Part shown: positions 10,920 to 43,582 of the stretch, one piece after another
Position numbering within the stretch: the first letter of the stretch is position 1
How the letters are laid out: each line of letters starts with the position of its first letter
Assembly (NCBI GenBank): GCA_051294905.1
Contig: CM119371.1
Coordinates: forward strand, 21,454,001 to 21,518,000
DNA length: 64,000 nt
Reading direction: 5' to 3'
DNA from: Botryllus schlosseri
Lineage: Eukaryota
The notes under the pieces: model-generated
The model's database searches: none
What the model was told of the DNA's origin: nothing
Seen by the model: the letters and a program-made list of their open reading frames with translations, nothing else
Program-made: the position numbers and the translations under genes

Positions 10920-11926
10920 GACTGACGAGATAGCGTAATGGTAAAGCGTCCGGCTTCTCGATCGGTAGGTCGTGGGTTCGACCCCCGGCCGGGTCAGACC
11001 AAAGATCTCATTGGTAACACTGGTATCCATGACTTCCCTGCTTGGCGCTCATGCATTACTGGGATAGCATGGAGGGGTGGTGCAAGGCTTAGAAAGCCGT
11101 AAAAGGCTATATCTGCACCTTCCTTGTCCTGCGGCATATGCACATTAGGGCTCTTCAAAAATGACTTTTTTTCTCAAATCGTACTGGCTACTTGATAAAA
11201 TTGTTAGGTTACCTAATTTAAGCCTACACACAAAATTTGGTTCAATTCCAGCCAGTAACCGCTTTGCTACAGGAGAAGAAAGTTTCTATTTATTATATAA
11301 AAATACATAATATAAAATTTGAAAATTTTCTGTTCACCCCATGAAAGTGTTGGGCTGTCTATAGAAACGATGCTCACCAAATTTGGTTCAATTCCAACCA
11401 GTGGAAGCGGAGTTATTGCCGTCGAAAATTTGGATTTGAATAAAATAGTATTTACGGTGACCGATTCTTTGTTTATTTATTATAGTTGTGCTCACCGTAA
11501 ATACTATTTTATTCAAATCCAAATTTTTCGACGGCAATAATTCCGCTTCCACTGGTTGGAATTGAACCAAATTTGGTGAGCATCGTTTCTATAGACAGCC
11601 TAACACTTTCATGGGGTGAACAGAAAAATTTCAAATTTTTTATTATTTATTTTTATATAGTAAATAGAAACTTTTTCTCCTGTAGCAAAGCGGTTACCGA
11701 CTGGAATTGAACCAAATTTTGTGTGTAGGCCTAAATTAGGTAACCTAACAATTTTATCAAGTAGCCAGCACGATTTGAGAAAAAAAGTCATTTTTGAAGA
11801 GCCCTAATGCACATCATGCACTCATGATATGCCAATGTGCATATCGTGTGTATGTATATCATGAGTCGTTGTATATGCCGCAAAAAACACCAAGGACAAA
11901 AACAAACTACGTCCTCTCCTCTCCTC
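10920..11926 (+). mobile_element. tRNA-derived SINE with a Meta-like central domain, split by a foldback element
   Basis: A box TAGCGTAATGG, B box GGTTCGACCCC, then GGTCAGACCAAAGA...CTTCCCTGCTTGGCGCTCA. The body resumes at 11807 and ends in a (TCCTC)n tail. Confidence 0.8.
11146..11806. mobile_element. Almost fully palindromic ~660-bp foldback MITE (hAT-type TSD)
   Basis: TAGGGCTCTTCAAAAATGAC...GTCATTTTTGAAGAGCCCTA with ~310-bp arms; TSD ATGCACAT. Confidence 0.95.
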
Positions 11927-15159: not shown

Positions 15160-15890
15160 CCGAACACATCCCAGACATGATGTCCGAACACGCCCCAGAC
15201 ACGATGTCCTAGCGTCAACTCAGTCCTAACACACCCCAGACATGATGTTCAAACACGCGCCAGACACGATATACGAGTGTCAATACAGGCCTGACACGCC
15301 CAAGACACCATGTATGAATGGCAACACAGACCGAACACGCCCAAGACACGATGTCCGAGTGTCAACTCAGATCCGAAAACAACCCAGACACCATGTTTGA
15401 ATGGCCGAACATGCCCCGGACGCGATGTCAGATTGGCAGCACAGGCCGAACACACCCCAGACATGATGTCCAAACACGCCGCAGATACGATGTCCGGGTA
15501 TCAACACAGGCCGAACACACCCAAGACACCATGTCGGAATGGCAACACGGACCGAACACGCCCCAGACACGATGTCCGAGTGTCAACTACGTCCGAACAC
15601 GACCCAGATACCATTTTTGAATGGCCGAACACGCCCCAGACACGATGTCCGATTGCCATCACAGGCCGAACACACCCCAGACATGATGTTCAAACACGCC
15701 TCAGACACGATGTCCGAGTATAAACACAGGCCGAACACGCCCAAGACACCATGTCCGAATGGCAACACAGCCCGAACACGCCTCAGACACCATGTTTGAA
15801 TGGCAATAGCACAGGCCGAACACGCCCCAGACACCATGTCCGAGTATCAACACAGGCCGAACTCGCCCAAGACACCATGTCCGAATGAAT
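15160..15890 (+). repeat. GC-rich minisatellite (left arm), ~21/38-bp units
   Basis: Repeated CCGAACACGCCCCAGACAC motif; source of the spurious ORFs in this interval. Confidence 0.9.
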
Positions 15891-17719: not shown

Positions 17720-19228
17720 AGCAGGTTTTTCTTAAAGAATTTAACGAAACGTCAGAAACAACATATGAAGATGAGTTATTTACAGTGGGCACAGGAACAG
17801 AAATGCACGACTTCAATGTTACGGCATGTGATAAGAATCCTATGGTTATGAAACACTTGAAACGTTGCAGGTTAGCAAATTTTTCCTAAAAATACTTGGG
17901 TACAGGCCCAAAAATGCACGAATTCCATGTTTCAGCAACGGATATGACTCGGAGGATATGAAACACTTCAAACAGTACAGGTTAAAACATACAATAAAAT
18001 CAAGAGCAATGCAACAATGCAGGTTAGCAAGTTCTTACTAAAAATTTAACGAAACAAAAAAAAGGTCAGAAACAACGAATGAAGATAAGTTATTTACAGT
18101 TGGCACAGGAACAGAAATGCACGAATTCAATGTCACGGCATGTGATAAGAATCATATGGTTATGAAACACTTGAAACGTTGCAGGTTAGCAAATTTTTCC
18201 TAACAATTCTTGAGTGCAGGCCCAAAAATGCAGGAATTCAATGTTTCAGCAGCTGATATGACTCTAGATCAGGGGTGGGCAAACTACGGCCCGCGGGCCG
18301 CATGCGGCCCTCCACACCGTCCTGTGCGGCCCGCGAGAGTCTGAAGAAATTTACAAAATATTGATAAAATGCATACTAATAATCGAATTAATGCAGGCAC
18401 TTGATTAAACTTTTCCACGATAATTCTCAGGCAGTGGTGAAAAATTTTTTGCGCTTCGCGCGATCCTCATCTCGTTCATAATTCTTGCTTTGCATTTAGT
18501 CTGAATTTCATATTTGAAAATCTCCCATCCACAGTCTTAACCTTCAATGGCACCAAACTGATGCTAAACATCACAGAAATCCTAAACGAGATTGCTATAA
18601 TTCGGATCACGAGGGTGATGTCAGATCGGCCACCCCAGTTTTAATTATATCAGTGATGTGCTTATTAAAAACGATCTCGTAGATACGATCTCTGTATGCG
18701 TGGAATTAGGGTATTTGTATTTTAGCTAGACATACCAGAAGCGTGTTGGAGGCTGACATGGTTATGATGCAGTCAGCATTATGTGTCCTGGAACTGAACC
18801 AAAAGTGGAATTATTAAATCTATGAGCAGATCGCTTTTCACAGATTTAAATTTCAATCCTGTTCTAAGAATCGGGAAAACCGACTTTTATTTCTATAGTT
18901 TTGACAAATTGGCTATTGAGGTCGACCAGCCTATGAAATCAAGCCACTGTTTCTGACGCGTGTACGATATCATCAAAGCAATGTTTGGTTTGTTTTAAAT
19001 AAGCATATATATGATCTCCATATCCTCACTATATCATCGAATACCAATATGGTGTCTTGGTTTATAATCCCAATTTTACATAGTGCGGCCCGCGAACGGA
19101 TTCAGATGTTGAATGCGGCCCGCGAGCTCAAAAGTTTGCCCACCCCTGCTCTAGATGTTATAAAACACTTCAAACAGTGCAGGTTAAAATATAAAATAAA
19201 ATCAAGAGCAATGCAACAATGTAGGTTG
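17720..19228 (+). repeat. ~310-bp tandem duplication with internal subrepeat, interrupted by hAT 18270-19148
   Basis: 17720-18020 is repeated at 18020-18269 plus 19157-19228. Confidence 0.75.
18270..19148. mobile_element. Charlie/Buster-like non-autonomous hAT
   Basis: CAGGGGTGGGCAAAC / GTTTGCCCACCCCTG; TSD CTCTAGAT. Confidence 0.95.
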
Positions 19229-20460
19229 AGGTGTGTTCGGCCTGTGCTGCCAATCGGACATCGTGTCTGGGGCATGTTCGGCCATTCAAACATGGTGTCT
19301 GGGTTGTGTTCGGATCTGAGTTGACACTCGGACATCGTGTCTGGGGTGCGTTCGGTCTGTGTTGCCATTCAGACATGGTGTCTTGGGCGTGTTAGGCCTG
19401 TATTAACACTCGGACATCGTGTCTGGCGCGTGTTCGGACATCGTGCCTGGGGAGTGTTCAGACATCATGTCTGGGGGGTGTTCGGTCTGTGTTGCCATTC
19501 AGACATGGTGTCTTGGGCGTGTTCGGCCTGTGTTGACACTCGGACACTGTGTCTGAGGCGTGTTCGGACACCATGTCTGGGGTGCGTTCGGCCTGTGTTG
19601 CCAATTAGACATCGTGTGTGGAGCGTGTTCGGTCTGTGTTGTCATTCAGACATTATGTCTGGGGCGTGTCGGCCTGTGTTGACACTCGGACATCGTGTCT
19701 GCGCCGAGTTCAGACATCATGTCTGGGGCGTGTTCGGCCTGTGCTATAGCCATTCAAACATGGTGTCTGAGGCGTGTTCGGTCTGTGTTGCCATTCGGAC
19801 ATGGTGTTTTGGGCGTGTTCGGCCTGTGTTTATACTCGGACATCGTGTCTGAGGCGTGTTTGAACATCATGTCTGGGGTGTGTTCGGCCTGTGATGGCAA
19901 TCGGACATCGTGTCTGGGGCGTGTTCGGCCATTCAAAAATGGTGTCTGGGTCGTGTTCGGACGTAGTTGACACTCGGACATCGTGTCTGGGGCATGCTCG
20001 GTCTGTGTTGCCATTCAGACATGGTGTCTTGGGCGTGTTAGGCCTGTATTGACACTCGGACATCGTGTCAGGCGCGTGTTTGGACATCATGTCAGGGGTG
20101 TGTCCGGCCTGTGCTGCCAATCGGACATCGTGTCTGGGGCGTGTTTGGACATCATGTCTGGGGTGTGTTCGGCCTGTGCTGCCAATCGGACATAGTCTGT
20201 GGGGTGTGTTCCGCCATTCAAACATGGTGTCTGGGTTGTGTCCGGACTGAGTTGACACTCGGATATCGTGTCTGGGGTGTGTTCGGCCTGTGTTGCCATT
20301 TGGACATGGTGTCTTGGGCGTGTTAGGCCTGTGTTGATACCCGGACATCATGTCTGGGGCGTGTTTGGACATCATGTCTGGGGTATGTTAAGACTGTGTT
20401 GACGCTAGGACATCGTGTCTGGGATGTGTTCGGACACCATGTCTGGGATGTGTTCGGACT
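19229..20460 (-). repeat. GC-rich minisatellite (right arm), inverted
   Basis: Repeated GTGTCTGGGGCGTGTTCGG motif. Confidence 0.9.
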
Positions 20461-20477
20461 TGGTTACCACTGGGAAG

Positions 20478-22095
20478 CAGTGTTGGGATGACTCGAGTCA
20501 TGACTTGACTCGAGTCAGACTCGAGTCACCTTTTTCGTATGACTTGACTTGACTCGAGTCACTTTGCTAAAATGACTTTACTTGACTTGACTCGGGGTAT
20601 CAGAAATGTGGATTGACTCGTGACTCGGAGCAAAATTCACGAGTCAATTTCAAGTCATCAAGTAATCGGTATCGATAAAAATCACTGTATCTTGCATATG
20701 GTCGGATTGTTCGCGAAACGCCAGCGTAACCCGTGAGAGTGAGCAATCATTGAATGATTCAATGATTTAATGAGCCTCCATTGTTCTCTCACAAATAAAT
20801 TAACCGCAAACGAGGTGATCGAAGCTTACAGCTTACGTTGTCGTAAACTAATTTAGTAAAGTAATTTAATAGCAAAATGTCTATTTCTGTTCTTGCCTTA
20901 ATCAAACCTTTTTTTTATATTGAATTCGAATATAGTTTATAGCCGATAGTTCTCAACCATTGGCACGGGCTGAAATTGCATCATATCAATTTGTAAGTGA
21001 GTAATGTATTGCATCTTATCAATTCGTTTCTCTATTCTGCTGGGAACTATAAACTGAGGCTATGCAATTACTTACGTAGTTTAACAGATCTACATATATG
21101 TGAGCGATACAGCGTGTATATTAGGGCTCTTCAAAAATGACTTTTTTCTCTAATCGTATTGGCTACTTGACAAAATTGTTAGGTTACCTAATTTAAGCCT
21201 ACACACAAAATTTGGTTCAATTCCAGCCAGTAACCGCTTTGCTACAAGTGAAGAAAGTTTCTATTTATTATATAAAAATAAATAATAAAAAAATTTGAAA
21301 ATTTTCTGTACACCCCATGAAAGTGTTTGGCTGTCTATAGAAACAATGCTCACCAAATTTGGTTCAATTCCAACCAGTGGAAGCGGAGTTATGGCCGTCG
21401 AAAAATTTGGATTTGAATAAAATAGTATTTACGGTGACCGATTCTTTGTTTATTTATTAAAGTTGTGCTAACCGTAAATACTATTTTATTCAAATCCAAA
21501 TTTTTCGACGGCAATAACTCCGTTTCCACTGGGAGGAATTGAACCAAATTTGGTGAGCATCATTTCTATAGACGGCCTAATACTTTTATGGGGTGAACAG
21601 AAAATTTTCAAATTTTTTATTATTTATTTTTATATAATAAATAGAAACTTTCTTCTCCTTAGCAAAGCGGTTACTGGCTGGAATTGAACCAAATTTTGTG
21701 TGTAGGCTTAAATTAGGTAACCTAACAATTTTATCAAGTAGCCAGTACGATTTGAGAAAAAAAGTCATTTTTGAAGAGCCCTAGTGTATATTTAACTCTA
21801 CATTTATTCATCGATTCACAATCAATGACCACTCAATCTGTATTTCAGACAGCTAGCAAAATGCAATGACCTAATCATGCCCCACTTTGAAAAGGCAACT
21901 TGACTTGAATTGTGACTTGACTCGTGACTTGACTTGACTTGACTCGACTTGACTCGAGTCACCTCCAAAAATCGGGTGACTTGACTTGACTCGAGTCACC
22001 TTCGAAAATCAATTGACTTGACTTGACTCGAGTCAAAATATGCAGTGACTCGAAATGACTCGTGACTCGAAGGTAGTGACTTGATCCCAACACTG
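20478..22095. mobile_element. hAT element with (TGACT)n subterminal arrays
   Basis: CAGTGTTGGGAT / ATCCCAACACTG; TSD CTGGGAAG. Confidence 0.95.
21122..21783. mobile_element. Second full copy of the TAGGGCTCTTC foldback MITE
   Basis: Highly similar to 11146-11806; TSD GTGTATAT. Confidence 0.95.
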
Positions 22096-25274: not shown

Positions 25275-27079
25275 CAGTGCTTTTCAACCTGTGTGACGGT
25301 TCGCACTTGTGCGAATGAAAAAAATTGCAGTGCGAATGACGAAGGTGGTGCGAACGGTGCGAATGAAAATCCCGGATGAGTGCGAATGAAAATCGCGAAT
25401 GATAATTGTTAATTTTTCTGACCTGAAATATTTCAAATAGACCTAATAGGAAATTCAAGGGCAGTGTAACTTTTGTTGTTGCGACGCAATTGTAAAAAGT
25501 ACAGTATCATCCCGTCCGAGCCTGCGACAGGCTGAAAAAATGACGTCGAATTGACTTCCTGCTTTCCTTCGCTAAACAATCTTTCGTAATAACTGTTCGA
25601 TTAGTGCGAGACACGAGGATGGTAGTAAATAACATCATTGAAGACTCGCATTTGCAAGTTTTTGTAACGCAGATTTTTACCCCTTCAAGGGTTATGAAGG
25701 TATGGACCGCAAAGGGTATAATTTTTGGTGGACACGGTGCCAGAGCTATCTGTTAATGTGTATGTGATATTTGTTAAATTCATTGCAAAAAACCTGCGAT
25801 ATAGTTTTTACAAATCTAAGGTCACGGTGTTTGGTACTGTAGCCAGAAAATATGGCTTTATCATGATAAGATTTGTCCGACTGGTAAACATGGTCGATGA
25901 TGACCGTTGGGATGAACTAGTGTAGGGACTAGAGATGTGCAACGAGCGAGTTCAGGTCTGTGACACTCAGCCAGCCAGCCAGCCAGCCCCTTTTGCGTCG
26001 GGTTACATGAAGACGTAAAGTTCTGGTCAACAAACCTCTGATGTAAATGCGGTGCTAAAACATCGACAAAACCTTGGTCGAAAATGACCTATGCTGGATG
26101 GCCAAACCATTCGATATGGATATTCTCCGTTGTCGGCAGTGAATAGTCCCGTTCTTGCAATCTGAGTAGACTGCAGTAATACAACTGCGACACGTAGAGG
26201 AATTTAATTCACCCTAATTTGAGATCGCGTGCGTCATACATATTTTGTAGAGCTGTGTTGGATAGAATTGTGGTGTGCGCGTTCTGTATGTCATACATGT
26301 CCCATTGTCCGTAAAATCTTAACATATACTACTGTAATATTAAAAATGAATTCTTTTTCATGGGTGAGGCTCTGGTCGTGAGATGCGACAAAAACTCAGA
26401 TTTTGGTGTTAGTCCAAAAAGCTGCATTGACGTTATTAAACTGTTATGAATTCTCAAGTTAGATTAAGCTCAAGAGCAGAACACAGAGTATTGTGAGTTC
26501 AGTTGCTCTTCCCACATACTCGCGAGACAGAAAATGGGAATTCGAAAAAAAAGTTGGAGCAACTTATCATAAGGTAGCGAGCTCTAATATGCCTACTCTC
26601 CTTCATTGTTTGGACCTTATTTTCCAAAACATAATGCAAAAGCCTCAACACAAACAAGTGGGTTTTTCACCCTTTCGACATACTGGAGCCTAATAGAACT
26701 TTTTGTCAGCGCTCAAAATCGATTTCTTCCAGCAAGCATTTTTTAATTGTGAAAAAATACGTTGTATTTTGGATAGGAGTGCAGAACAGATTCTAAGACC
26801 TTGCCATCCAAGCACTAATAGACGTTCTTGTACAAAACCCAACAACGTGTTTGGACTGAAAGGGTTTTAGTGAAATTTTTGAAATCGAAACGAGCGAAAA
26901 TAGTAGCCTTTTTAATGAGACACTTGATAGCTTAAGACACACCAATTTGTTGCAAATCCGATCAAATAAATGTTGTATTTTCATATTCTTTCTGTATAAC
27001 AATTTTCGGTTTGTTTGTGCAAATGAAATTTATTTTACGAAAAAGTGCGAATGAAGCTTAAAAAGGTTGAAAAGCACTG
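25275..27079. mobile_element. hAT element with TGCGAATGA subterminal repeats; its right TSD is displaced by the 16-kb insertion
   Basis: Perfect TIR CAGTGCTTTTCAACC / GGTTGAAAAGCACTG; TSD ACCCAGTC at 25267-25274 and 43157-43164. Confidence 0.9.
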
Positions 27080-27233
27080 ACAGTATTATAGCCTGTCTTT
27101 ATACCCCCTCCAATCAGCGTCGAGTATTTGATCACGTGACATCTGTTAGCCAATCAGAATGCAGAAGGATGTGGGTTTGGTTCCAATACGAGAGAGGTTT
27201 TGGTTGAGCGAGAGATAGCATAGCTCCAGTCCA

Positions 27234-27680
27234 GTAACGCTGAGATATTTATTACGTCATTGCGTAAGTTGATTACCTATGATTGCGTATTGCAGCATGT
27301 TCATGATTGCGTCACATGCGTAGTTGATTACTTTATTTATTACGAGAGCGGCTTTGCTTAGTTCCACGTGTAACGCTGAGATATTTATTACGTCATTGAG
27401 TAAGTTGATTACCTATGATTGCGTATTGCAGCATGTTCATGATCACGTCATATGCGATTACTTTAGTTATTACGAGAGCGGCTTTGCTTAGTTCCAGTAA
27501 TGCTCAGATATGATTACGTTATGATTGCGTCTAGTTCCAGTCCAATAACACTGAGAAACACGTTAATACGATTGTGTAGTTGAAGCATGTTCATGATTAC
27601 GTCGTATGTGTAGTTGATTACTTTAGTAACACCGAGATATGATTACGTTAATATTGCGTTGATTGCCTTTGCAGTTGAAG
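27234..27680 (+). repeat. Subterminal tandem repeats (~130-bp x2 plus decayed units) rich in bZIP-like motifs; mirrored at ~42550-42997
   Basis: GTAACGCTGAGATATTTATTACGTCA... at 27234 and 27369; TTACGTCA, TTGCGTAA and TCACGTCA motifs. Confidence 0.85.
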
Positions 27681-27749
27681 CAAGTGCAAGGTAATATATA
27701 ACGTATAATATTTATTACATGATTATTCGCTGTAGGCTGTAGATTGAAT

Positions 27750-28037
27750 ATGTCAAAGATTACTGCTAATGATATATACGTCATAATGGATCGAATTGAC
27801 CTGATGAACTGGTATAGGTTTGCACGTGAAAAACTTGAGCTATCTGACAATGAAATTGCCGAATGTCAATACATGGATTGCTATAACTTAACTGAGCAAC
27901 GATATCAAATGATACAGTTATGGATTCGTAAAAATGGTCGTTACGCTACGATGAACAAACTTGAAGAATTAGTTCACAGCTGTCAGATACCTTCGAATAG
28001 CAATTCAAATGCTCTGTTGAAAGACATAACGTACTAA
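27750..28037 (+). CDS. Stand-alone death-domain protein (95 aa), left arm
   Basis: WYRFAREKLELSDNEI...LTEQRYQMIQLWIRKNGRYATMNKL matches the DD pattern W..(L/F)AR.L.LS..EI...L.EQ.YQML..W....G..AT...L. A likely 5'UTR intron lies at ~27691-27742. Confidence 0.85.
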   Translation: MSKITANDIYVIMDRIDLMNWYRFAREKLELSDNEIAECQYMDCYNLTEQRYQMIQLWIRKNGRYATMNKLEELVHSCQIPSNSNSNALLKDITY

Positions 28038-30890
28038 GAGGAGAATTGCGCGGACTAGTGAATAATGAAGATGCTCTCAGAAGACTTCAATATCGATGAA
28101 AATGGCTAATTTCACGTAAAATCATAAGATATTCTAATCATTGAAATCATGTAGATTATAACAGTGAACGTCTTTTGTACAAACTAATTCTTCAACAAGA
28201 TAATCAACAATTTAACGAAAACTCAAATAGATATTCACAAAGCAACAATATTAAAAAAAAGATGTTCACCGTTATAAGCCACAATGATGTCAATGAATAT
28301 AGAAAAAATATTAATAATATTAATACTCCTCAGTTAGAATGAAATATTTTAAAAGATTCAAATCATGTTTTGATTCTTATAATAACGTAAGCTAATTATT
28401 TTCATCAACATCACAAGATAATTGATAAATTAACTAAATAATAAATAAGATATTCACAAAGCAGCAATATTAATAAAATAATCAGTGGTAACAACACATG
28501 GAAATGGCTAATTTCACGCAATATTATAAGATATTCATATTACTAGGTAATTTTTTGATATTATTACGTTGATTTGTGTGTCAATATTAGTGTAAAATGA
28601 AAGCATTTTGTAGTGCATACGCTAAGGTACTGCGACACTATCCATTAACCAAGAAGGTATTCAGTTAATTCCCTATAGAGCACAGCTGTTGTCACAATGA
28701 AATGTTGACTATCGAATGAAGTTTATTATTGTGTATTGATAGGATACACCTTCATGAGGTTGCAAGGTATTTGAATTTTGTGTAGCGCTAATTCTAATTA
28801 AACTTGGAGCTTGTTGTACAAAAGATGTTCACCGTTATAAGCTACAATGATTTCAATGAATAATGAAAGAAATAATAATAATCATTAATATTCCAAAGTT
28901 GGAACCAAAGTAATAATACTTGAAAAATGAAATATTTTAAACATATTTAAATCCAGTAAATTGTACTTCTACTCCAAGTAGCAATTCGCCTACTGACTGG
29001 AATTTAATCGAATTTGGTATGCCGCAATCATAGAGAAAAAGTAGATTTTCTCAAATATTTGATGTAGGTATTTATTGTTAGCTGCTGTTATAGGGATATT
29101 TCGCAATAGCAGTGCATTCGTATCACCGACTGTTTGCGGTCAAAGGAGATCGCTATAGACCAATAAATTACTTATAGCGGAAATGATGTTGAGCTGTACC
29201 AACGTAGTTAACTATCAAGTTCATCGTTATACACAATGATTTATCATTGATTAATTATCCACTTCGATTCGAGAGTTCAATTGCAAATTTTTAATCATTT
29301 AGTACCATCTTTCATCAAATTCTATAAGTCTTGCATTATATTGAAATCCCAGAACAACTAGAAATATGTATTAAAAATCCAGTGACGTAAACATTTTGAT
29401 AGCACTGTGTAAATGACATATCGCAATATTATCACCCTACTCGCCTCACATATGTCTCACTAAACAATGCATTCGCTATTTAGTATTAATATTGTTCCAC
29501 GCATTAGCCTGCAAATGTAGTATAATATAATGAGATAAGATTGTTTGATATGCAGGTCGCGCATGAAGCAGATCTCTCCACCCTGTACTATAGTAATGTG
29601 TTAGATGTGTGCTCAAATGTTTATTGTGAATAAGACCAGTTACGCTCCAGCTACCGTGTTGGTTAACCCGTTGTGAAATTTCTGCGGCCATATCTTCACC
29701 GTCACACTTATACTCTACGCGAACGCTATATTGTAGCTTAATTTCTTTATGTAGTACGTGCAAACATATGATGTGTGTCTCTCAATTTCCTTTCAAAATC
29801 CATATGATACAACAGCTGGCCTCTACAGGGAATTAACTGAATACATTCTTGACCAATGGATCGTGTCGCAGTACCTTACCCTATGCACTACAAAATGCTA
29901 TCATTTTACACAGTAATAATGAGACACAAACCAAAGTAATGATATCAGAAAATTGCCTAATAATATGAATATCTTAAGATTTTTGCGTGAAATTAGCCAT
30001 TTTCTAGTGTTGTTATTGTTTCACTAGCACTGATTTTTCTAATAATATTGTTGCTTTGTGAACATCTTATTAATTTTTTAGTTAAAGTATCAATTATCTT
30101 GTGTTGTTGATGAAAATAATTAGCTTGTACAAAAGACGTTCACTATTAAAATATACACGATTTCAATGATTATTAAAAAATAAGCTGATGCAAGTTTCCA
30201 GAATGCTGATGCTAACTATGCTGTTGGAGCCTTTCCAAATAGCAATACGCAGTACAGTTATCGCAGATGGATGCAAAATAGTCCTAATTCTCAACAATTT
30301 GAATTGTCTCGAAATCACACTTATTGCGATATCAAATCCCCGCATTTAGTTGTATTTAGGGCTATTGCACAAGCTATCTCCAATATGCTGCAATATAGAG
30401 AGGTTCAAACTTGTCTAGGGTATTCACTTCCCGTCAACTAGCTTTTAAAGACACATTGATAAGCGCGCCTATTTAATTACCTAATTTTCTTGACTGTCTT
30501 CGAATATTTCATCGACTATCATAAGGAACATTCGCTCATCGCTCATCATTCGCTCATCATATATATATTACATTGACTTTAATATCACTATAACGGAACT
30601 ATAACGAAATATGATGTGTATGAGAGCTGTCGGTGTAAATCAAGAAGTAAGCATATAATAGGTGTATGTAGCAGGTTTTCACCATAATGTAGGGTGCTTA
30701 TCAACAATTTTTGTATATCGAATGTTTGTAGCTCTAGGAAGATATTCGTATTGGAGACTACGATTATATCTTCAAGAATATCAACATAACCAGCATATCA
30801 ACCAGAACTTTTAGGTTCGTTTTCCGATAGAAACCTCGGAAATATCTCATCATAAGCAGCGTATTACGCTTACTCTTGGCTGTTCCATCA

Positions 30891-31057
30891 AGCTCCGTAC
30901 ACCTTGATCTTTTCGGATACATTGGCATTGCGGAATATGCAACGTTCAGCATTGGATGAACATTCCTAACAAAGGCATAGGTGTCCCCAGGGAACCAAGC
31001 TAACTTCGCTTCTATTCTTTTACATTGTTTGCAAAGCACGGTATTTTGTAATTCCAT
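30891..31057 (-). pseudogene. IAP-type RING-HC finger pseudogene, left arm
   Basis: Mirror of 39174-39340. Confidence 0.7.
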
Positions 31058-31694
31058 GAGACTTCAGTGGTTCTAGAATACAAAATTATTGAGAGTCGAA
31101 TAAACTGTCAATTAACTAAGCATAAAGTATATGATATTCAAAAATATTTAAAGGTTACGTCGTTGAACAACCCCGATATGATCATACAGCGAAAGTATAG
31201 CCCCAAATAGCGCTAATATCTCCCAAGCATAAACAATAACGTGGTCGAAATGTACGTTTTATTGCAAATTTATCTCTAAACAGAATGAGCTGTAGCTTAT
31301 CACATTCGAATTACTGAGTGAAATTGACATAGAACTATTAGGTCAAGCCGAAACATCTTCACTTCAGTTATCATTCCCATGGGGCTACTAGTTATAGCAG
31401 AGGCGGGCAAACTGCGATTCGCGCCTGTAGCACTTTATTGATTTCACGTGCGTTTCGCTATTTTGTTAAAGAAGTTCAACCTGATTATATGTTAATGCAT
31501 CTATAGCGTATTAGAAATATGCGAATGGTGGCCCTATACAGCCTTCGAAATTAGCAATTGAACTCTCGAATTCAACCTGATCATCAATCAATGACAAATC
31601 ATTGTTTTCAACGCTATTTTTTGTGGTTCACTGACTCACAACCTTTAGTGACCCGCAGAGCACTTACGTTAGTTGAACTTTGGCCTCAGTTGGA

Positions 31695-32287
31695 CTGTAG
31701 ATTACTAACCTACGGATAGATACGCAAGTCCCGTCGTTACGCTCCGACAAGCAGTTACACTTGTTGCTGAGCAATCCAAAAGAAGCATAATTGGTGGAGT
31801 TATAGCTTGCGTCCCGAGGGCTGAAATGTAATGAAACTGGTCTTAATCGAGAGCTACTGCCTCACTGATTCCGAAAATACAAATTCAAATCGTGCCGGGG
31901 ATATGGAACCACCTCAAAACATCTCTCAAAATCTGAAAATCGACATAGTTCCAACAATGGCACCACCGCAACAGGATGAACATAACAATGGCCAATTTCG
32001 TCAAGCGATTGTTCAGAGCAATTTCGATTTTCAGACTTTGAGGGATGGTTTGACATGGTTCCATTTCCTGACAAGATTTTAATTTGTATTCTCAGAATCA
32101 GTGCGACAGTAGCTCTCGATTAAGAGACCAGTTTCAATAAATTTCACCTCTCAGGTCGCAAGTTGTAATACCACCAATTATGGTGCTTTTAGATTGCTGA
32201 GCAATAAGTGTAACTGCTTGCCGGAGCGTAACGACGGGACTTGCGTATCTATCCGTAGGTTAGTAATCTATAGTTTTACCACCCCTG
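31695..32287. mobile_element. MITE with ~200-bp TIRs inside the left arm (mirrored at ~37943-38536)
   Basis: 31695-31895 is inverted against 32068-32272; hAT-like ACCACCCCTG right end. Confidence 0.75.
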
Positions 32288-32451
32288 CTCTAAACCATAA
32301 CCATAACAACTTGAGTAAGTACTGTCACTAGGCAAACCCTAGCAGAGTTATGCTCAAATTATATCAAATATTGCATGGAATATGGCAAATGAACACGCCA
32401 AGTATTATCAAGTGAAGGAAAACGAACGCCTAATTCCCTCTAGATACATAT

Positions 32452-34818
32452 TTATTCGGAAAATCTCCCATTACAGGGTGAGTACAGTTGATTTCTCAAG
32501 GTCTTCCTATCTTCCCCACTTAAGCGCGGTAAGACTAGTTTGACTTCGCGGCATTCAGGATTATATCTCACGAAGCTCTGAATGGAATTCACGTATTTCA
32601 CGTCGACTATCGTTCTGTTGCTATCACTGAGGTCGATTGCCTTTAGCTGTTCATTGAATAATAGGCGATTTAGATCAATTTAAAAAATACAGAAACGAAC
32701 TGCATCGCTACATCGGGATCTACTATTGAGCAGAAAGATCTTACTGTAGCGCATCGCTTTCCCGTCTCTTCGCTCAGATTCCTGATTTGCATGGAAAGCA
32801 TCTTGCAATTACTCAGATTAAATTCTTCCACACGGGAATTGCACAGGACTTTAGTTAGTGTTTTGTAGCAGGATGAAATGCCAGGATTTCTACTTAAATC
32901 CAGCGAGTGCAGCTAAAACATGGTGTAATGTTCAAATATTTTACGAGACTACAAATGACTCGACACCTGTAATAGATTAGTCATAATATTATTTATCAAC
33001 AGTTGAGCAATTTTCGCGATGTCTGCTCCTAATAGCAAAACTGATGCAACACCGAAGACAATAATGAAGCTCGAAAGGTTATTGAAGAAACCATCTAAAC
33101 TAGATTTAAAATGAATGAACGATTGAAAAAACCTCTTGCTTAGAAGCAGTGATAGTATTTATTTTCAGACGTGATCAGAAACACTTTATTGATGATAAAA
33201 GTTCTATCGATCGATGAAATGTCATGCTTGAGTATGACTGAAACTCACATAAGCATTAGACTGTGATTGATTATTTCAGTTACAAAACATAACGGATCTA
33301 GTTCAAATGATCACCTCATGAATTCCGAGACCTTTATTTAATAAGATTAGTGAGTCTTCGTCCAATTCGCAAGCTGAAAGTCGAACGTTTTTCGTGTTAT
33401 GCTTTCTTACAAAGCATCCAACTTCTTTCAAACCTGTCGGTTCCATATCCGTATTATAACTCAGATCAAGGTTTTCGACCTACAATTACAGTAATTTATT
33501 TCAAAATGACACACAAAACTATAGAAACGAGTGAGTACCTCGATAGAAGCAAAACTTTCAAAAGCGCGAATTTCCTCTGGTGTAAGGTCACACCCCTTCA
33601 TGATAAGAGTAACCGCTTTGTCTTTACAAAGTAAGGCAGGCAGCGCGGTCATACACTCTTCATCCAGCTGATTGTAGCTGATGTCAAGATATTGGAGCTG
33701 AACAAATATAGGAAACTGTCAATTTACGATCAGCATTGATCAGATATAAAACATTTCAAACTGATAACAGAAAAAAAATGTTGATTAGCCACTCACGTCA
33801 TAATATACGCGAAATGTGCTAAGAGTAAACTAGAATTTCCTCTATCCATCCATCTCTGTACAATCGCTCACACAGAATGTGATCATTAACGACTATACCC
33901 AGCAATAATCGCACATACCTTACTGTTTTTGAGCTGTAGAGCAACGAAATCTTTTGACTGCAAGTGCGAGTTCACAAGTGACAAATAGGTTAGATCGTTC
34001 GAAATAATAGTCGCGAGTTGCGTAAAGTTAATGTTTTCCCCGTAGCTGAGATTGAGGTTTCGTAATTTCACCTATGGGAACGAGGTATTAGGAAACCTCA
34101 CTTCGAGAGGTTCTATACTAGATTAGCGCCTAGCTTTTCCCATCATCAATACCTGATGCCGCCTGATAAGTTGATCCAAAATGATTAGAAAATCTTCGGA
34201 TCCATCACTTTCTTCCAGATTGAGCTCCGTCAAACCACACTCCTTCATCAACTCGCATATTACTGGGAGGAGGTTTTCAATGTTGTCGTGTGCTGTAACG
34301 CTGAGTTTTCTTATTTCGACCTGAACGAGCGCAAAACTTCACACATAAAATGCTAAATGAGCTATGAACAGTTTAACACTGATCAACTTTAGCTATAGCC
34401 TATCTAATAAGGCTATTGAGACTGATTCCTATACAAGTAGCAATTGAGCATTGTTCGCTACGTTACCTTCAATTCTCGCCTTAACACATCAGTAATAGGG
34501 AACAACGCGATTACGATAAAAGTTTTTTTAAAGTCGTATCTGAATACTTATATTGAACGTGAATTTATAATGATCAGTGACTACGAGTGAATGTGTGAAG
34601 GCGTTTACCACAAATTCAAATCCACGAATTTTATCCAGTAGAATCTTTACGAGGTTTTCATTGAGATCGCATTGGCGAAATTCTAACTCATACACGCGAC
34701 ATTGCTGAATAAGACCATTCGCGATATTATGTATATCCAATTCAGTCGTAGTTTGGTCATAGAGCCCATAAGGAATATTCACGTCATCATGATCCGTAAG
34801 TACTAATTGATGGTACAT
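32452..34818 (-). CDS. 7-exon RI/NLR-type leucine-rich repeat protein, left arm
   Basis: Mirror of 35412-37778 with a few substitutions. Confidence 0.8.
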
Positions 34819-35098
34819 CCTCTTTTCAGCTTAAGGATGTAAACTAAAAAATGTTGTATGCCGCCCTGATGAGTTTAATTATAATATACTTATAATGGTA
34901 CAGTGATTTTTCAATAACGAAACTCTTTTACAGCATGAGCAGAATAATTTCATAATAAACATAAAATACCTGCTGTCGATGATTTGTACTAATTTGCGGC
35001 GCGTTCAATTAACTCATGCGGCTCAAAAATATAGTAAGCATGGCGATTGGTATTCGTTGAGTTGAATAAACATTAAAAACAATATATTTCCGCGCCCT

Positions 35099-35131
35099 CC
35101 TAAACCTAATTCCTCCTAACCCTACAACCCA
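35099..35131. other. 33-bp non-palindromic loop at the palindrome centre, CCCTAA-like
   Basis: CCGCGCCCT[CCTAAACCTAATTCCTCCTAACCCTACAACCCA]AGGGCGCGG. Confidence 0.9.
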
Positions 35132-35411
35132 AGGGCGCGGAAATATATTGTTTTTAATGTTTATTCAACTCAACGAATACCAATCGCCATGCTTACTATA
35201 TTTTTGAGCCGCATGAGGTAATTGAACGCGCCGCAAATTAGTACAAATCATCGACAGCAGGTATTTTATGTTTATTATGAAATTATTCTGCTCATGCTGT
35301 AAAAGAGTTTCGTTATTGAAAAATCACTGTACCATTATAAGTATATTATAATTAAACTCATCAGGGAGGCATACAACATTTTTTAGTTTACATCCTTAAG
35401 CTGAAAAGAGG

Positions 35412-37778
35412 ATGTACCATCAATTAGTACTTACGGATCATGATGACGTGAATATTCCTTATGGGCTCTATCACCAAACTACGACTGAATTGGATATACA
35501 TAATATCGCGAATGGTCTTATTCAGCAATGTCGCGTGTATGAGTTAGAATTTCGCCAATGCGATCTCAATGAAAACCTCGTAAAGATTCTACTGGATAAA
35601 ATTCGTGGATTTGAATTTGTGGTAAACGCCTTCACACATTCACTCGTAGTCACTGATCATTATAAATTCACGTTCAATATAAGTATTCAGATACGACTTT
35701 AAAAAAACTTTTATCGTAATCGCGTTGTTCCCTATTACTGATGTGTTAAGGCGAGAATTGAAGGTAACGTAGCGAACAATGCTCAATTGCTACTTGTATA
35801 GGAATCAGTCTCAATAGCCTTATTAGATAGGCTATAGCTAAAGTTGATCAGTGTTAAACTGTTCATAGCTCATTTAGCATTTTATGTGTGAAGTTTTGCG
35901 CTCGTTCAGGTCGAAATAAGAAAACTCAGCGTTACAGCACACGACAACATTGAAAACCTCCTCCCAGTAATATGCGAGTTGATGAAGGAGTGTGGTTCGA
36001 CGGAGCTCAATCTGGAAGAAAGTGATGGATCCGAAGATTTTCTAATCATTTTGGATCAACTTATCAGGCGGCATCAGGTATTGATGATGGGAAAAGCTAG
36101 GCGCTAATCTAGTATAGAACCTCTCGAAGTGAGATTTCCTAATACCTCGTTCCCATAGGTGAAATTACGAAACCTCAATCTCAGCTACGGGGAAAACATT
36201 AACTTTACGCAACTCGCGACTATTATTTCGAACGATCTAACCTATTTGTCACTTGTGAACTCGCACTTGCAGTCAAAAGATTTCGTTGCTCTACAGCTCA
36301 AAAACAGTAAGGTATGTGCGATTATTGCTGGGTATAGTCGTTAATGATCACATTCTGTGTGAGCGATTGTACAGAGATGGATGGATAGAGGAAATTCTAG
36401 TTTACTCTTAGCACATTTCGCGTATATTATGACGTGAGTGGCTAATCAACATTTTTTTTCTGTTATCAGTTTGAAATGTTTTATATCTGATCAATGCTGA
36501 TCGTAAATTGACAGTTTCCTATATTTGTTCAGCTCCAATATCTTGACATCAGCTACAATCAGCTGGATGAAGAGTGTATGACCGCGCTGCCTGCCTTACT
36601 TTGTAAAGACAAAGCGGTTACTCTTATCATGAAGGGGTGTGACCTTACACCAGAGGAAATTCGCGCTTTTGAAAGTTTTGCTTCTATCGAGGTACTCACT
36701 CGTTTCTATAGTTTTGTGTGTCATTTTGAAATAAATTACTGTAATTGTAGGTCGAAAACCTTGATCTGAGTTATAATACGGATATGGAACCGACAGGTTT
36801 GAAAGAAGTTGGATGCTTTGTAAGAAAGCATAACACGAAAAACGTTCGACTTTCAGCTTGCGAATTGGACGAAGACTCACTAATCGTATTAAATAAAGGT
36901 CTCGGAATTCATGAGGTGATCATTTGAACTAGATCCGTTATGTTTTGTAACTGAAATAATCAATCACAGTCTAATGCTTATGTGAGTTTCAGTCATACTC
37001 AAGCATGACATTTCATCGATCGATAGAACTTTTATCATCAATAAAGTGTTTCTGATCACGTCTGAAAATAAATACTATCACTGCTTCTAAGCAAGAGGTT
37101 TTTTCAATCGTTCATTCATTTTAAATCTAGTTTAGATGGTTTCTTCAATAACCTTTCGAGCTTCATTATTGTCTTCGGTGTTGCATCAGTTTTGCTATTA
37201 GGAGCAGACATCGCGAAAATTGCTCAACTGTTGATAAATAATATTATGACTAATCTATTACAGGTGTCGAGTCATTTGTAGTCTCGTAAAATATTTGAAC
37301 ATTACACCATGTTTTAGCTGCACTCGCTGGATTTAAGTAGAAATCCTGGCATTTCATCCTGCTACAAAACACTAACTAAAGTCCTGTGCAATTCCCGTGT
37401 GGAAGAATTTAATCTGAGTAATTGCAAGATGCTTTCCATGCAAATCAGGAATCTGAGCGAAGAGACGGGAAAGCGATGCGCTACAGTAAGATCTTTCTGC
37501 TCAATAGTAGATCCCGATGTAGCGATGCAGTTCGTTTCTGTATTTTTTAAATTGATCTAAATCGCCTATTATTCAATGAACAGCTAAAGGCAATCGACCT
37601 CAGTGATAGCAACAGAACGATAGTCGACGTGAAATACGTGAATTCCATTCAGAGCTTCGTGAGATATAATCCTGAATGCCGCGAAGTCAAACTAGTCTTA
37701 CCGCGCTTAAGTGGGGAAGATAGGAAGACCTTGAGAAATCAACTGTACTCACCCTGTAATGGGAGATTTTCCGAATAA
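35412..37778 (+). CDS. 7-exon RI/NLR-type leucine-rich repeat protein (~405 aa), right arm
   Basis: Phase-0 GT-AG exons 35412-35621, 35910-36077, 36159-36311, 36533-36691, 36751-36915, 37318-37485 and 37584-37778. Motifs include LRNLNLSYG, LQYLDISYNQL, VENLDLSYN, LHSLDLSRNP and LKAIDLSDS. Internal exons are 51-56 codons. Confidence 0.85.
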
Positions 37779-39173
37779 ATATGTATCTAGAGGGAATTAG
37801 GCGTTCGTTTTCCTTCACTTGATAATACTTGGCGTGTTCATTTGCCATATTCCATGCAATATTTGATATAATTTGAGCATAACTCTGCTAGGGTTTGCCT
37901 AGTGACAGTACTTACTCAAGTTGTTATGGTTATGGTTTAGAGCAGGGGTGGTAAAACTATAGATTACCAACCTACGGATAGATACGCAAGTCCCGTCGTT
38001 ACGCTCCGGCAAGCAGTTACACTTATTGCTCAGCAATCTAAAAGCACCATAATTGGTGGTATTACAACTTGCGACCTGAGAGGTGAAATTTATTGAAACT
38101 GGTCTCTTAATCGAGAGCTACTGTCGCACTGATTCTGAGAATACAAATTAAAATCTTGTCAGGGAAATGGAACCATGTCAAACCATCCCTCAAAGTCTGA
38201 AAATCGAAATTGCTCTGAACAATCGCTTGACGAAATTGGCCATTGTTATGTTCATCCTGTTGCGGTGGTGCCATTGTTGGAACTATGTCGATTTTCAGAT
38301 TTTGAGAGATGTTTTGAGGTGGTTCCATATCCCCGGCACGATTTGAATTTGTATTTTCGGAATCAGTGAGGCAGTAGCTCTCGATTAAGACCAGTTTCAT
38401 TACATTTCAGCCCTCGGGACGCAAGCTATAACTCCACCAATTATGCTTCTTTTGGATTGCTCAGCAACAAGTGTAACTGCTTGTCGGAGCGTAACGACGG
38501 GACTTGCGTATCTATCCGTAGGTTAGTAATCTACAGTCCAACTGAGGCCAAAGTTCAACTAACGTAAGTGCTCTGCGGGTCACTAAAGGTTGTGAGTCAG
38601 TGAACCACAAAAAATAGCGTTGAAAACAATGATTTGTCATTGATTGATGATCAGGTTGAATTCGAGAGTTCAATTGCTAATTTCGAAGGCTGTATAGGGC
38701 CACCATTCGCATATTTCTAATACGCTATAGATGCATTAACATATAATCAGGTTGAACTTCTTTAACAAAATAGCGAAACGCACGTGAAATCAATAAAGTG
38801 CTACAGGCGCGAATCGCAGTTTGCCCGCCTCTGCTATAACTAGTAGCCTCATGGGAATGATAACTGAAGTGAAGATGTTTCGGCTTGACCTAATAGTTCT
38901 ATGTCAATTTCACTCAGTAATTCGAATGTGATAAGCTACAGCTCATTCTGTTTAGAGATAAATTTGCAATAAAACGTACATTTCGACCACGTTATTGTTT
39001 ATGCTTGGGAGATATTAGCGCTATTTGGGGCTATACTTTCGCTGTATGATCATATCGGGGTTGTTCAACGACGTAACCTTTAAATATTTTTGAATATCAT
39101 ATACTTTATGCTTAGTTAATTGACAGTTTATTCGACTCTCAATAATTTAGTATTCTAGAACCACTGAAGTCTC

Positions 39174-39342
39174 ATGGAATTACAAAATACCGTGCTTTGC
39201 AAACAATGTAAAAGAATAGAAGCGAAGTTAGCTTGGTTCCCTGGGGACACCTATGCCTTTGTTAGGAATGTTCATCCAATGCTGAACGTTGCATATTCCG
39301 CAATGCCAATGTATCCGAAAAGATCAAGGTGTACGGAGCTTG
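39174..39342 (+). pseudogene. IAP-type RING-HC finger pseudogene, right arm
   Basis: MELQNTVLCKQCKRIEAKLAWFP, then a 1-nt frameshift to GHLCLC*ECSSNAERCIFRNANVSEKIKVYGA*. This is a C-terminal IAP-like RING with a frameshift, a TAG stop and loss of the last Cys. Confidence 0.75.
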
Positions 39343-42193
39343 ATGGAACAGCCAAGAGTAAGCGTAATACGCTGCTTATGATGAGATATTTCCGAGGTTT
39401 CTATCGGAAAACGAACCTAAAAGTTCTGGTTGATATGCTGGTTATGTTGATATTCTTGAAGATATAATCGTAGTCTCCAATACGAATATCTTCCTAGAGC
39501 TACAAACATTCGATATACAAAAATTGTTGATAAGCACCCTACATTATGGTGAAAACCTGCTACATACACCTATTATATGCTTACTTCTTGATTTACACCG
39601 ACAGCTCTCATACACATCATATTTCGTTATAGTTCCGTTATAGTGATATTAAAGTCAATGTAATATATATATGATGAGCGAATGATGAGCGATGAGCGAA
39701 TGTTCCTTATGATAGTCGATGAAATATTCGAAGACAGTCAAGAAAATTAGGTAATTAAATAGGCGCGCTTATCAATGTGTCTTTAAAAGCTAGTTGACGG
39801 GAAGTGAATACCCTAGACAAGTTTGAACCTCTCTATATTGCAGCATATTGGAGATAGCTTGTGCAATAGCCCTAAATACAACTAAATGCGGGGATTTGAT
39901 ATCGCAATAAGTGTGATTTCGAGACAATTCAAATTGTTGAGAATTAGGACTATTTTGCATCCATCTGCGATAACTGTACTGCGTATTGCTATTTGGAAAG
40001 GCTCCAACAGCATAGTTAGCATCAGCATTCTGGAAACTTGCATCAGCTTATTTTTTAATAATCATTTAAATCGTGTATATTTTAATAGTGAACGTCTTTT
40101 GTACAAGCTAATTATTTTCATCAACAACACAAGATAATTGATACTTTAACTAAAAAATTAATAAGATATTAACAAAGCAACAATATTATTAGAAAAATCA
40201 GTGCTAGTGAAACAATAACAACACTAGAAAATGACTAATTTCACGCAAAAATCTTAAGATATTCATATTATTAGGCAATTTTCTGATATCATTACTTTGG
40301 TTTGTGTCTCATTATTACTGTGTAAAATGATAGCATTTTGTAGTGCATAGGGTAAGGTACTGCGACACGATCCATTGGTCAAGAATGTATTCAGTTAATT
40401 CCCTGTAGAGGCCAGCTGTTGTATCATATGGATTTTGAAAGGAAATTGAGAGACACACATCATATGTTTGCACGTACTACATAAAGAAATTAAGCTACAA
40501 TATAGCGTTCGCGTAGAGTATAAGTGTGACGGTGAAGATATGGCCGCAGAAATTTCACAACGGGTTAACCAACACGGTAGCTGGAGCGTAACTGGTCTTA
40601 TTCACAATAAACATTTGAGCACACATCTAACACATTACTATAGTACAGGGTGGAGAGATCTGCTTCATGCGCGACCTGCATATCAAACAATCTTATCTCA
40701 TTATATTATACTACATTTGCAGGCTAATGCGTGGAACAATATTAATACTAAATAGCGAATGCATTGTTTAGTGAGACATATGTGAGGCGAGTAGGGTAAT
40801 AATATTGCGATATGTCATTTACACAGTGCTATCAAAATGTTTACGTCACTGGATTTTTAATACATATTTCTAGTTGTTCTGGGATTTCAATATAATGCAA
40901 GACTTATAGAATTTGATGAAAGATGGTACTAAATGATTAAAAATTTGCAATTGAACTCTCGAATCGAAGTGGATAATTAATCAATGATAAATCATTGTGT
41001 ATAACGATGAACTTGATAGTTAACTACGTTGGTACAGCTCAACATCATTTCCGCTATAAGTAATTTATTGGTCTATAGCGATCTCCTTTGACCGCAAACA
41101 GTCGGTGATACGAATGCACTGCTATTGCGAAATATCCCTATAACAGCAGCTAACAATAAATACCTACATCAAATATTTGAGAAAATCTACTTTTTCTCTA
41201 TGATTGCGGCATACCAAATTCGATTAAATTCCAGTCAGTAGGCGAATTGCTACTTGGAGTAGAAGTACAATTTACTGGATTTAAATATGTTTAAAATATT
41301 TCATTTTTCAAGTATTATTACTTTGGTTCCAACTTTGGAATATTAATGATTATTATTATTTCTTTCATTATTCATTGAAATCATTGTAGCTTATAACGGT
41401 GAACATCTTTTGTACAACAAGCTCCAAGTTTAATTAGAATTAGCGCTACACAAAATTCAAATACCTTGCAACCTCATGAAGGTGTATCCTATCAATACAC
41501 AATAATAAACTTCATTCGATAGTCAACATTTCATTGTGACAACAGCTGTGCTCTATAGGGAATTAACTGAATACCTTCTTGGTTAATGGATAGTGTCGCA
41601 GTACCTTAGCGTATGCACTACAAAATGCTTTCATTTTACACTAATATTGACACACAAATCAACGTAATAATATCAAAAAATTACCTAGTAATATGAATAT
41701 CTTATAATATTGCGTGAAATTAGCCATTTCCATGTGTTGTTACCACTGATTATTTTATTAATATTGCTGCTTTGTGAATATCTTATTTATTATTTAGTTA
41801 ATTTATCAATTATCTTGTGATGTTGATGAAAATAATTAGCTTACGTTATTATAAGAATCAAAACATGATTTGAATCTTTTAAAATATTTCATTCTAACTG
41901 AGGAGTATTAATATTATTAATATTTTTTCTATATTCATTGACATCATTGTGGCTTATAACGGTGAACATCTTTTTTTTAATATTGTTGCTTTGTGAATAT
42001 CTATTTGAGTTTTCGTTAAATTGTTGATTATCTTGTTGAAGAATTAGTTTGTACAAAAGACGTTCACTGTTATAATCTACATGATTTCAATGATTAGAAT
42101 ATCTTATGATTTTACGTGAAATTAGCCATTTTCATCGATATTGAAGTCTTCTGAGAGCATCTTCATTATTCACTAGTCCGCGCAATTCTCCTC

Positions 42194-42481
42194 TTAGTAC
42201 GTTATGTCTTTCAACAGAGCATTTGAATTGCTATTCGAAGGTATCTGACAGCTGTGAACTAATTCTTCAAGTTTGTTCATCGTAGCGTAACGACCATTTT
42301 TACGAATCCATAACTGTATCATTTGATATCGTTGCTCAGTTAAGTTATAGCAATCCATGTATTGACATTCGGCAATTTCATTGTCAGATAGCTCAAGTTT
42401 TTCACGTGCAAACCTATACCAGTTCATCAGGTCAATTCGATTCATTATGACGTATATATCATTAGCAGTAATCTTTGACAT
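42194..42481 (-). CDS. Stand-alone death-domain protein, right arm
   Basis: Mirror of 27750-28037 with one D/N difference. Confidence 0.85.
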   Translation of the reverse strand: MSKITANDIYVIMNRIDLMNWYRFAREKLELSDNEIAECQYMDCYNLTEQRYQMIQLWIRKNGRYATMNKLEELVHSCQIPSNSNSNALLKDITY

Positions 42482-43582
42482 ATTCAATCTACAGCCTACA
42501 GCGAATAATCATGTAATAAATATTATACGTTATATATTACCTTGCACTTGCTTCAACTGCAAAGGCAATCAACGCAATATTAACGTAATCATATCTCGGT
42601 GTTACTAAAGTAATCAACTACACATACGACGTAATCATGAACATGCTTCAACTACACAATCGTATTAACGTATTTCTCAGTGTTATTGGACTGGAACTAG
42701 ACGCAATCATAACGTAATCATATCTGAGCATTACTGGAACTAAGCAAAGCCGCTCTCGTAATAACTAAAGTAATCGCATATGACGTGATCATGAACATGC
42801 TGCAATACGCAATCATAGGTAATCAACTTACTCAATGACGTAATAAATATCTCAGCGTTACACGTGGAACTAAGCAAAGCCGCTCTCGTAATAAATAAAG
42901 TAATCAACTACGCATGTGACGCAATCATGAACATGCTGCAATACGCAATCATAGGTAATCAACTTACGCAATGACGTAATAAATATCTCAGCGTTACTGG
43001 ACTGGAACTATGCTATCTCTCGCTCAACCAAAACCTCTCTCGTATTGGAACCAAACCCACATCCTTCTGCATTCTGATTGGCTAACAGATGTCACGTGAT
43101 CAAATACTCGACGCTGATTGGAGGGGGTATAAAGACAGGCTATACTACTACTACTGACCCAGTCAATCCGAAATCGAGTAACTGTACGAGAAGGTCGCAC
43201 CAAACCAAATCGCAATCTTCAGTCACGAATCATTAACAGGTCATGTTTTGTCATCATGAACTAGAAATGTCACGTATTAGCTGATCTTCTACCGCATGGC
43301 AGCTTGTAAAAGTGATCTGATAGAGAAGTTTGTTGACATTTCAGTGATTTTTATTGCAGTTTGAGCGTGAACTGCAAGCTGTCACATCTAAAGAATAGAT
43401 ATGGCACTTCAATATATCGTTGAATACTTGGTGACGTCATGGCTTTAAAAAACATAAATAGCATAAAAAACATATTTTAAATTAGGGCCCTTGTTTTAAA
43501 TGAAACCATAACTATATGGATGCAGACGTAGCCTATACGCCGGAATACTAGCGATACATGTTAGCCGTATCACTCCTTAAGG

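Follow-up and report, generated by a model that had tools for sequence, protein, structure and literature searches.

Palindromic element

The window, which is the whole 64,000-nucleotide stretch of Botryllus schlosseri DNA analyzed here (assembly GCA_051294905.1, contig CM119371.1, positions 21,454,001 to 21,518,000), contains a large palindromic element. Self-BLAST of the window retrieved a single inverted match from 27082 to 43149, with 99.6% identity over 16,072 columns, loop included. The limits of the element were set by the direct repeat ACTGAC on both sides, a 6-bp TSD of the Polinton kind. The element spans 27082–43152 (16,071 bp), and the window is N-free. These results confirm the 16,071-bp palindrome described in an earlier note on this DNA. 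The features are as follows (positions in the window):

27076..27081, + strand: left TSD, ACTGAC (from sequence)
27082..43152, unstranded: whole palindromic element, 16,071 bp, without Polinton core genes
27082..35098, + strand: left arm, tip short of one AGT unit that is present in sister copies
27082..28095, + strand: terminal segment of helper family A, ~90% identical to C14b over 1 kb and 95.7% to C10b over 740 bp
27750..28037, + strand: open 95-aa death-domain ORF (Pfam PF00531, E 3.4e-11)
29018..29175, unstranded: 158-bp fragment, 92% identical to the region of a helper's internal 261-aa ORF
31694..32274, unstranded: internal 580-bp inverted-repeat element, 82% self-complementary, in both arms
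32455..34830, - strand: multi-exon LRR cargo gene or gene fragment, running outward from the centre
34950..35098, + strand: conserved stem of the fold-back tip, common to otherwise unrelated arms
35099..35131, unstranded: 33-nt asymmetric loop, C-rich on one strand and G-rich on the other
35132..43152, - strand: right arm, a mirror image of the left arm that keeps the complete AGT AGT AGT end
35400..37775, + strand: mirror copy of the LRR cargo
42194..42481, - strand: mirror of the death-domain ORF region, with one private substitution (27789/42442)
43153..43158, + strand: right TSD, ACTGAC

Between the two arms there are 18 substitutions and a single-base indel (identity, ~99.7%). The left tip is additionally short by 3 bases relative to the right tip. 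The left terminus reads AGT ATT ATAG, and the right terminus (reverse complement) reads AGT AGT AGT ATAG. The difference in AGT count between the termini is therefore as the earlier note had it. The right end has the (AGT)2//(ACT)2 motif, and the left end has one AGT and then ATT. Sister copies carry the motif at both ends. The AGT/ATT difference in the third unit (position 27086) is also found in the sister copy C11a and is variable across the family. The loss of the outer AGT at the left tip is private to the window copy: slide-back may have failed, the register may have shifted at integration, or the unit may have been deleted later. The earlier note had taken the asymmetry as a trace of slide-back. 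The asymmetry is present, but it occurs in a single copy and is weak evidence for that process.

The loop contains 33 unpaired nucleotides (z −16.3, 0/200 shuffles). On the G-rich strand it contains several tracts of GG/GGG together with a word resembling TTAGG, and these are kept across lineages. It is a possible candidate for a binding site or a G-quadruplex. No ATG-started ORF of 100 aa or more was found inside 27082–43152. None of the 10 scanned frames of the element matched the Polinton core families (pPolB, integrase, ATPase, protease, and capsid). Among the other mapped relatives and helpers, 37 of 44 have a perfect 6-bp TSD of their own, and the family occupies many insertion sites.

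Helper Polintons in the genome

With 40 of 174 candidates scored, a search with the terminus retrieved at least 87 matches. Six end pairs were fetched, and each flanks a non-palindromic element (17,421–17,873 bp) with AGTAGTA ends and a perfect 6-bp TSD. We refer to intact Polintons of this genome as helpers. Long open frames are present in all four helpers whose ORFs were listed. They encode an integrase (rve and chromo), an A32-type ATPase, and Bcl-2 and ubiquitin-conjugating domains. A 425-aa helper protein has a predicted double-jelly-roll fold (pLDDT 77.5). Foldseek placed this model closest to the Sputnik and mavirus capsids (E 4e-16 to 4e-15), and a PDB sequence search with the protein gave weak chance matches only. 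From the predicted structure, the helpers encode a double-jelly-roll capsid protein. Among the matches listed, at least 99 are in the genome, most without stops, and they fall into four identity bands (A to D).

The helpers also contain a 1,300-aa ORF with a DTDS motif, which is taken as a putative pPolB from the motif and its context. A PDB sequence search with this ORF gave no match that names it. A search of the genome with the polymerase family PF03175 gave no match, and neither did its control. PF04665 gave one genomic match although the helpers carry it, so family searches under-count here.

Family A helpers are 17.4–17.9 kb (n=6) and have TIRs of ~250–330 bp. Family B helpers are 19.2–19.6 kb (3 of 4 fetched), and family C helpers are 17.5–19.2 kb (4 of 6 fetched). 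D1/D2 helpers are 16.4 kb, and D3/D4 helpers are 15.4–15.8 kb. Family A helpers (e.g., C10b) carry Bcl-2, ubiquitin-conjugating, and death-domain accessory genes, which are likely an apoptosis-modulating set. Polintons were also found inserted into one arm of a satellite: C15a contains a D-type Polinton of ~16.6 kb, and R7 contains an A-type end. At G000:C1:38196562-38211497, a 14.9-kb D-ended element contains one satellite-arm marker and a capsid gene. It is possibly a satellite–helper recombinant.

Content of the arms

The first 300 bp of the element match family A ends with 402 bits, against at most 38 bits for the other helper families. The terminal segment (27082–28095) likely contains a predicted origin and an integrase site. 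Its death-domain ORF is identical to the accessory gene of helper C10b over 93 aligned codons. Together with a few short pieces, this segment brings the cover by helper ends to ~1.3 of the 8.0 kb of the arm. Helper ends leave the other ~84% of the arm unmatched, and the 158-bp fragment is the sole internal match to a helper. The remainder is a mosaic of modules that are found in other orders in other palindromes.

The earlier note had proposed that both halves arose when a single ~8-kb end fragment folded back. Both ends are of one Polinton end type, and that part of the proposal stands. The ~8-kb fragment does not, because only the ~1.3 kb matches helpers and the rest is a mosaic of satellite modules. 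An arm co-linear with a helper from terminus to fold point was likewise rejected; the tip, as given below, is absent from the helpers.

Such elements carry ~7 kb of cargo, the LRR gene included. The LRR call is based on weak LRR Pfam hits below the cut-off, atlas leads, and joints that match introns. The LRR cargo is common to C-ended relatives at 88–92%. Its pN/pS is 0.46–0.73, calculated on segments from stop to stop, in which intron bases are included. No RNA datasets are listed for the arm. Two RNA runs gave 89 and 255 reads on it. These reads are mostly 90–95% alike, so they probably come from paralogues and say nothing on expression of the window copy.

Fold-back tip and related elements

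A stem-and-loop pattern of the tip gave 46 forward and 45 reverse matches and 0 in the control. These correspond to 47 sites in 45 elements. The tip lies within kilobase-scale inverted arms in 40 of the 45 elements and between mixed arms in 1, and 4 were not classed. It is not mostly free-standing, and a MITE or short foldback element was rejected as its source. C7a is 16,048 bp with a perfect TSD; in it, two unlike arms flank this tip. A variant tip was found in further C-ended copies that were retrieved through the LRR cargo. The 54 stretches tested (helpers, helper ends, and the D family) all lack the tip.

Satellite arm ends match family A (23) or family C (18) in 41 of 42 cases, so two helper end types occur within one tip lineage. 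The sisters of the window element are C11a and C14a, at 99.4–100%. C1b and R8 do not have the conserved tip and have micro-repeat junctions instead.

In the other palindrome family, 3 of 4 tested ends match D. Two D-type palindromes were confirmed, of 14.5 and 13.6 kb, each with a ~1-kb loop and D-type ends. The genome contains 464 and 473 D-type ends. Contig 1 has 27 pairs of them, with an inverted inner marker in 15; 12 are symmetric, at 12.9–14.7 kb. Family B ends belong mostly to capsid-bearing elements and to two older rearranged palindromes, so a third length point was not obtained. A module of ~750–900 bp is common to O1 vs C70 and the right arm of C7a, at 85–91%. From this shared module, the D-ended and C-ended palindrome families exchange cargo.

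R1 is a C-ended palindrome whose mirror symmetry continues gap-free for 1.4 kb past its ends, to 17.8 kb. This extension is either an outer element or a symmetric duplication. C11d, C4c, C7c, C2b, and C5a have 100-N gaps, with tripled arms or mirrored flanks. These are probably scaffolding errors at palindromes, with true multimers as the less probable reading.

Length of the family

Arm types were defined by under 80% mutual cover. Across the 21 arm types, median arm length is 7.9 kb (IQR, 7.7–8.1 kb). The shortest arm is 5.5 kb, and the longest are two left arms (9.5–9.7 kb) that have one-arm insertions. Pairwise comparison of 19 representatives (171 pairs) gave medians of 5.6 kb for unshared sequence and 264 bp for length difference, two measures that do not correlate (rho −0.01). 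Arm types with 0–4% shared sequence have the same length.

Lengths of 14.9–16.4 kb were found for 24 of the 33 mapped, gap-free A/C elements, and the wider range of 14.4–17.6 kb takes in 28. Six more elements, found by cargo, are 12.3–18.0 kb. The length counts leave out the N-gap copies (C10a, C11d, C4c, C7c, C2b, and C5a), C15a (which has a helper inside it), and copies whose ends could not be placed on the fetched sequence (17 of the 45 elements with the tip). About 10 kb was taken on each side of the tip, so elements above ~20 kb are invisible to this survey. Short copies of 10.4, 10.8, 10.9, and 12.3 kb, or ~0.55–0.65 of helper length, have perfect or near-perfect TSDs.

Symmetric A/C elements (n=18) have a median of 15.67 kb, with helpers of 17.4–19.2 kb. 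Symmetric D-ended elements (n=12) have a median of 13.85 kb, with D3/D4 helpers of 15.4–15.8 kb. The D elements are shorter (p=0.0004), and this p overstates independence since there are related copies within each family. The 14.9-kb D-ended element with a capsid was dropped from the helper lengths in this comparison (satellite marker inside). It was counted as a helper in the comparison of all 33 D-end pairs, where the D contrast is weaker (p=0.019).

Satellite length divided by helper length gives 0.89 (A), 0.83 (C), and 0.89 (D). For the window copy against family A the value is 0.90, and for a single arm it is 0.45. A- and C-ended satellites share a median of ~15.8 kb though C helpers, of which four were measured, mostly exceed A helpers in length. 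Scaling with helper length comes from one contrast (A/C vs D), with two D3/D4 helper lengths. Within these data, family content varies widely while length is constrained and tracks helper length. The earlier note had suggested a length fitted to the helper. The family lengths bear this out in being nonrandom and in tracking the helper (ratios, 0.83–0.89).

Copying and homogenization of arms

The window copy and C11a have 16 substitutions and 1 indel between arms in common. Two substitutions are private. C11a lies on a different contig and has a different TSD. Because these arm-to-arm differences are common to both copies, the palindrome is older than the insertion, as the earlier note had supposed, and the element was copied as a whole. 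Re-folding from one arm is not obligatory in each cycle, since arm differences are inherited.

In four groups, changes in both arms vs other changes, in one arm, number 163 vs 15, 57 vs 11, 49 vs 21, and 17 vs 6. The other two groups have 8 vs 8 (the window group) and 0 vs 4. Most changes between more distant copies sit in both arms, so the arms were homogenized in the past. Chromosomal copies have one-arm insertions or deletions (C11a, 941 bp; C11b; C4a; C15a; and C6b), and arm identity is only 93–98% in some copies (C3a and Bx1). That resident copies gather such indels, and that some arms are so divergent, argues that homogenization is tied to mobilization. The 941-bp one-arm insertion in C11a (L012, about 3185-4135) has short TIRs and an apparent 8-bp TSD. 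It is presumably hAT-like.

Proposed mechanism

The element is very probably a real, recently mobile, helper-dependent palindromic derivative of a Polinton. By its ends and TSD it is a non-autonomous Polinton, and it works like a virus satellite. It is neither an autonomous Polinton nor a simple snap-back defective genome. Its helper-type ends and TSD suggest that it is mobilized in trans by helper enzymes. We give a probability of roughly 0.6 to the mechanism as a whole, in which helper enzymes would replicate and integrate the element and capsid packaging would hold its length near that of the helper.

The protein-primed polymerase of the helper would initiate at either end of the satellite. 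The displaced strand would fold into an 8-kb hairpin, whose open end would rebuild a duplex origin in the manner of an adenovirus panhandle. If the hairpin were copied without repair, arm differences would be kept; if repair or template switching took place in it, changes would pass to both arms. Extended to the whole molecule, the panhandle model would fit the homogenization pattern. Recombination with helpers and other satellites would swap ends and cargo and give mixed-arm intermediates such as C7a. The capsid size window would select molecules of ~0.8–0.95 helper length. Under this window, an ~8-kb unit (0.45 of helper length) would persist as a mirror-image dimer. The helper integrase would then insert the linear duplex.

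Capsid packaging is the likely cause of the family length. A helper-dependent satellite could also have its length set without a capsid, by processivity, hairpin stability, integration efficiency, or ancestry with like-for-like module recombination. The arms are mosaics of shared modules, and co-linear exchange would tend to conserve length. The short copies did insert, and packaging, though likely, is a reading of sequence and length statistics. Against a capsid-free cause, arm types that share 0–4% are equally long, and length difference is independent of unshared sequence. The D family has a different loop and shorter helpers but a similar ratio to the helper. A processivity limit also gives no obvious lower bound. 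We consider this alternative unlikely, at a level that still gives it some weight. It is improbable that the element is a giant foldback DNA transposon of the cut-and-paste type, dependent on the Polinton integrase alone and with arms kept alike by chromosomal gene conversion. Whole-element copying with arm differences kept would fit cut-and-paste, and the two RNA runs give almost no signal from the arm. The one-arm indels and the 93–98% arms described above show that chromosome residence does not equalize arms, and the length window would be left unexplained.

The model of the earlier note, taken literally, is a recent snap-back defective genome from the ~8-kb end of one helper. The shared end type and the helper-like first 1 kb agree with it, but it is largely refuted by the unmatched ~84% of the arm with its sole 158-bp internal match and by a tip that is common to A- and C-ended lineages and absent from helpers. 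We regard it as very improbable. An assembly or fold-back read artifact is hardly credible. The copies with 100-N gaps do show that palindromes confuse this assembly. The window copy, however, is N-free, sits between unique flanks, and has a direct TSD, and the differences between its arms are found again on another contig. Pieces of the arm are also present in contigs of other samples, though none spans the whole.

Comparison with known systems

The element resembles Polintons/Mavericks in the end motif of its right terminus, its 6-bp TSD, TIRs, and size near 16 kb, and ~1 kb of it is homologous to local intact elements. Vertebrate Mavericks have 5'-(AGT)2//(ACT)2-3' ends and a 6-bp TSD, according to Barreat and Katzourakis 2021 (PMC8097293). 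The element differs in its lack of polymerase, integrase, ATPase, protease, and capsid genes. Its inverted repeat makes up 99.8% of the element, against the ~250–330 bp TIRs of family A helpers.

Like other non-autonomous Polintons, it is mobile without core genes and carries cargo, and long TIRs are possible in both. One preprint describes insect polintons without polB that have 2-kb TIRs and keep most core genes (bioRxiv 10.1101/2025.02.07.637071), whereas the window element has none. The partial texts searched, with the founding 2006 paper, Repbase, and supplements outside their scope, contain no description of palindromic Polinton satellites. The word "palindrom" is absent from those portions of the Polinton papers that were searched for it, and neither a conserved tip nor end swapping nor scaling with helper length is reported in the literature covered to the same extent. 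Kapitonov and Jurka reportedly described zebrafish non-autonomous Polintons in 2006. Some non-autonomous Polintons in Repbase are reported to have multi-kilobase TIRs; if they do, the architecture is already known.

Adenovirus and its helper-dependent vectors are the likely working model. According to PMC9863843, the displaced strand of protein-primed strand displacement refolds as a panhandle to rebuild the origin. Adenovirus genomes of <75% or >105% of normal length rearrange toward it, which gives a length selection of 75–105%. Adenovirus differs in its ITRs of ~100 bp, its lack of an integrase, and a size rule that comes from engineered vectors. AAV snap-back genomes also consist of one end and its mirror image and are helper dependent, but the source (PMC10924063) presents them as heterogeneous by-products of a single-stranded, hairpin-primed virus. 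The satellites here have a fixed fold point, heritable integrated lineages, and foreign cargo.

P4/PICI phage satellites borrow the helper capsid and have genomes whose length suits a capsid. Their integrase and replication functions are self-encoded, and they usually make the capsid smaller. The element here appears instead to fill a normal-size capsid by self-duplication.

We tentatively suggest, at slightly less than even odds, that these elements are a distinct class of endogenous animal-polintovirus satellite. It would be a tip-defined lineage that swaps ends between helper families, with an ~8-kb unit doubled to fill the helper capsid and arms homogenized in replication. It would ferry death-domain and LRR cargo, and its length would record a packaging constraint. 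The spread of animal Polintons as virus particles has been argued mainly from capsid genes. If the suggestion is true, satellite length is indirect evidence that animal Polintons make virions. A passenger without core genes, with changing content but a length held at a fixed fraction of helper length, would be a testable sign of packaging at the sequence level. The pattern of arm differences may also record the predicted fold-back replication intermediate. Palindromic satellites are in addition a source of assembly errors.

Other repeats in the window

Two foldback MITE-like copies of ~670 bp (11134-11819 and 21120-21787) are 95% alike and have nearly full-length inverted repeats. GC-rich tandem-repeat arrays lie at 15130-15890 and 19226-20477 in opposite orientation. 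A related piece adjoins the tip of C7a.
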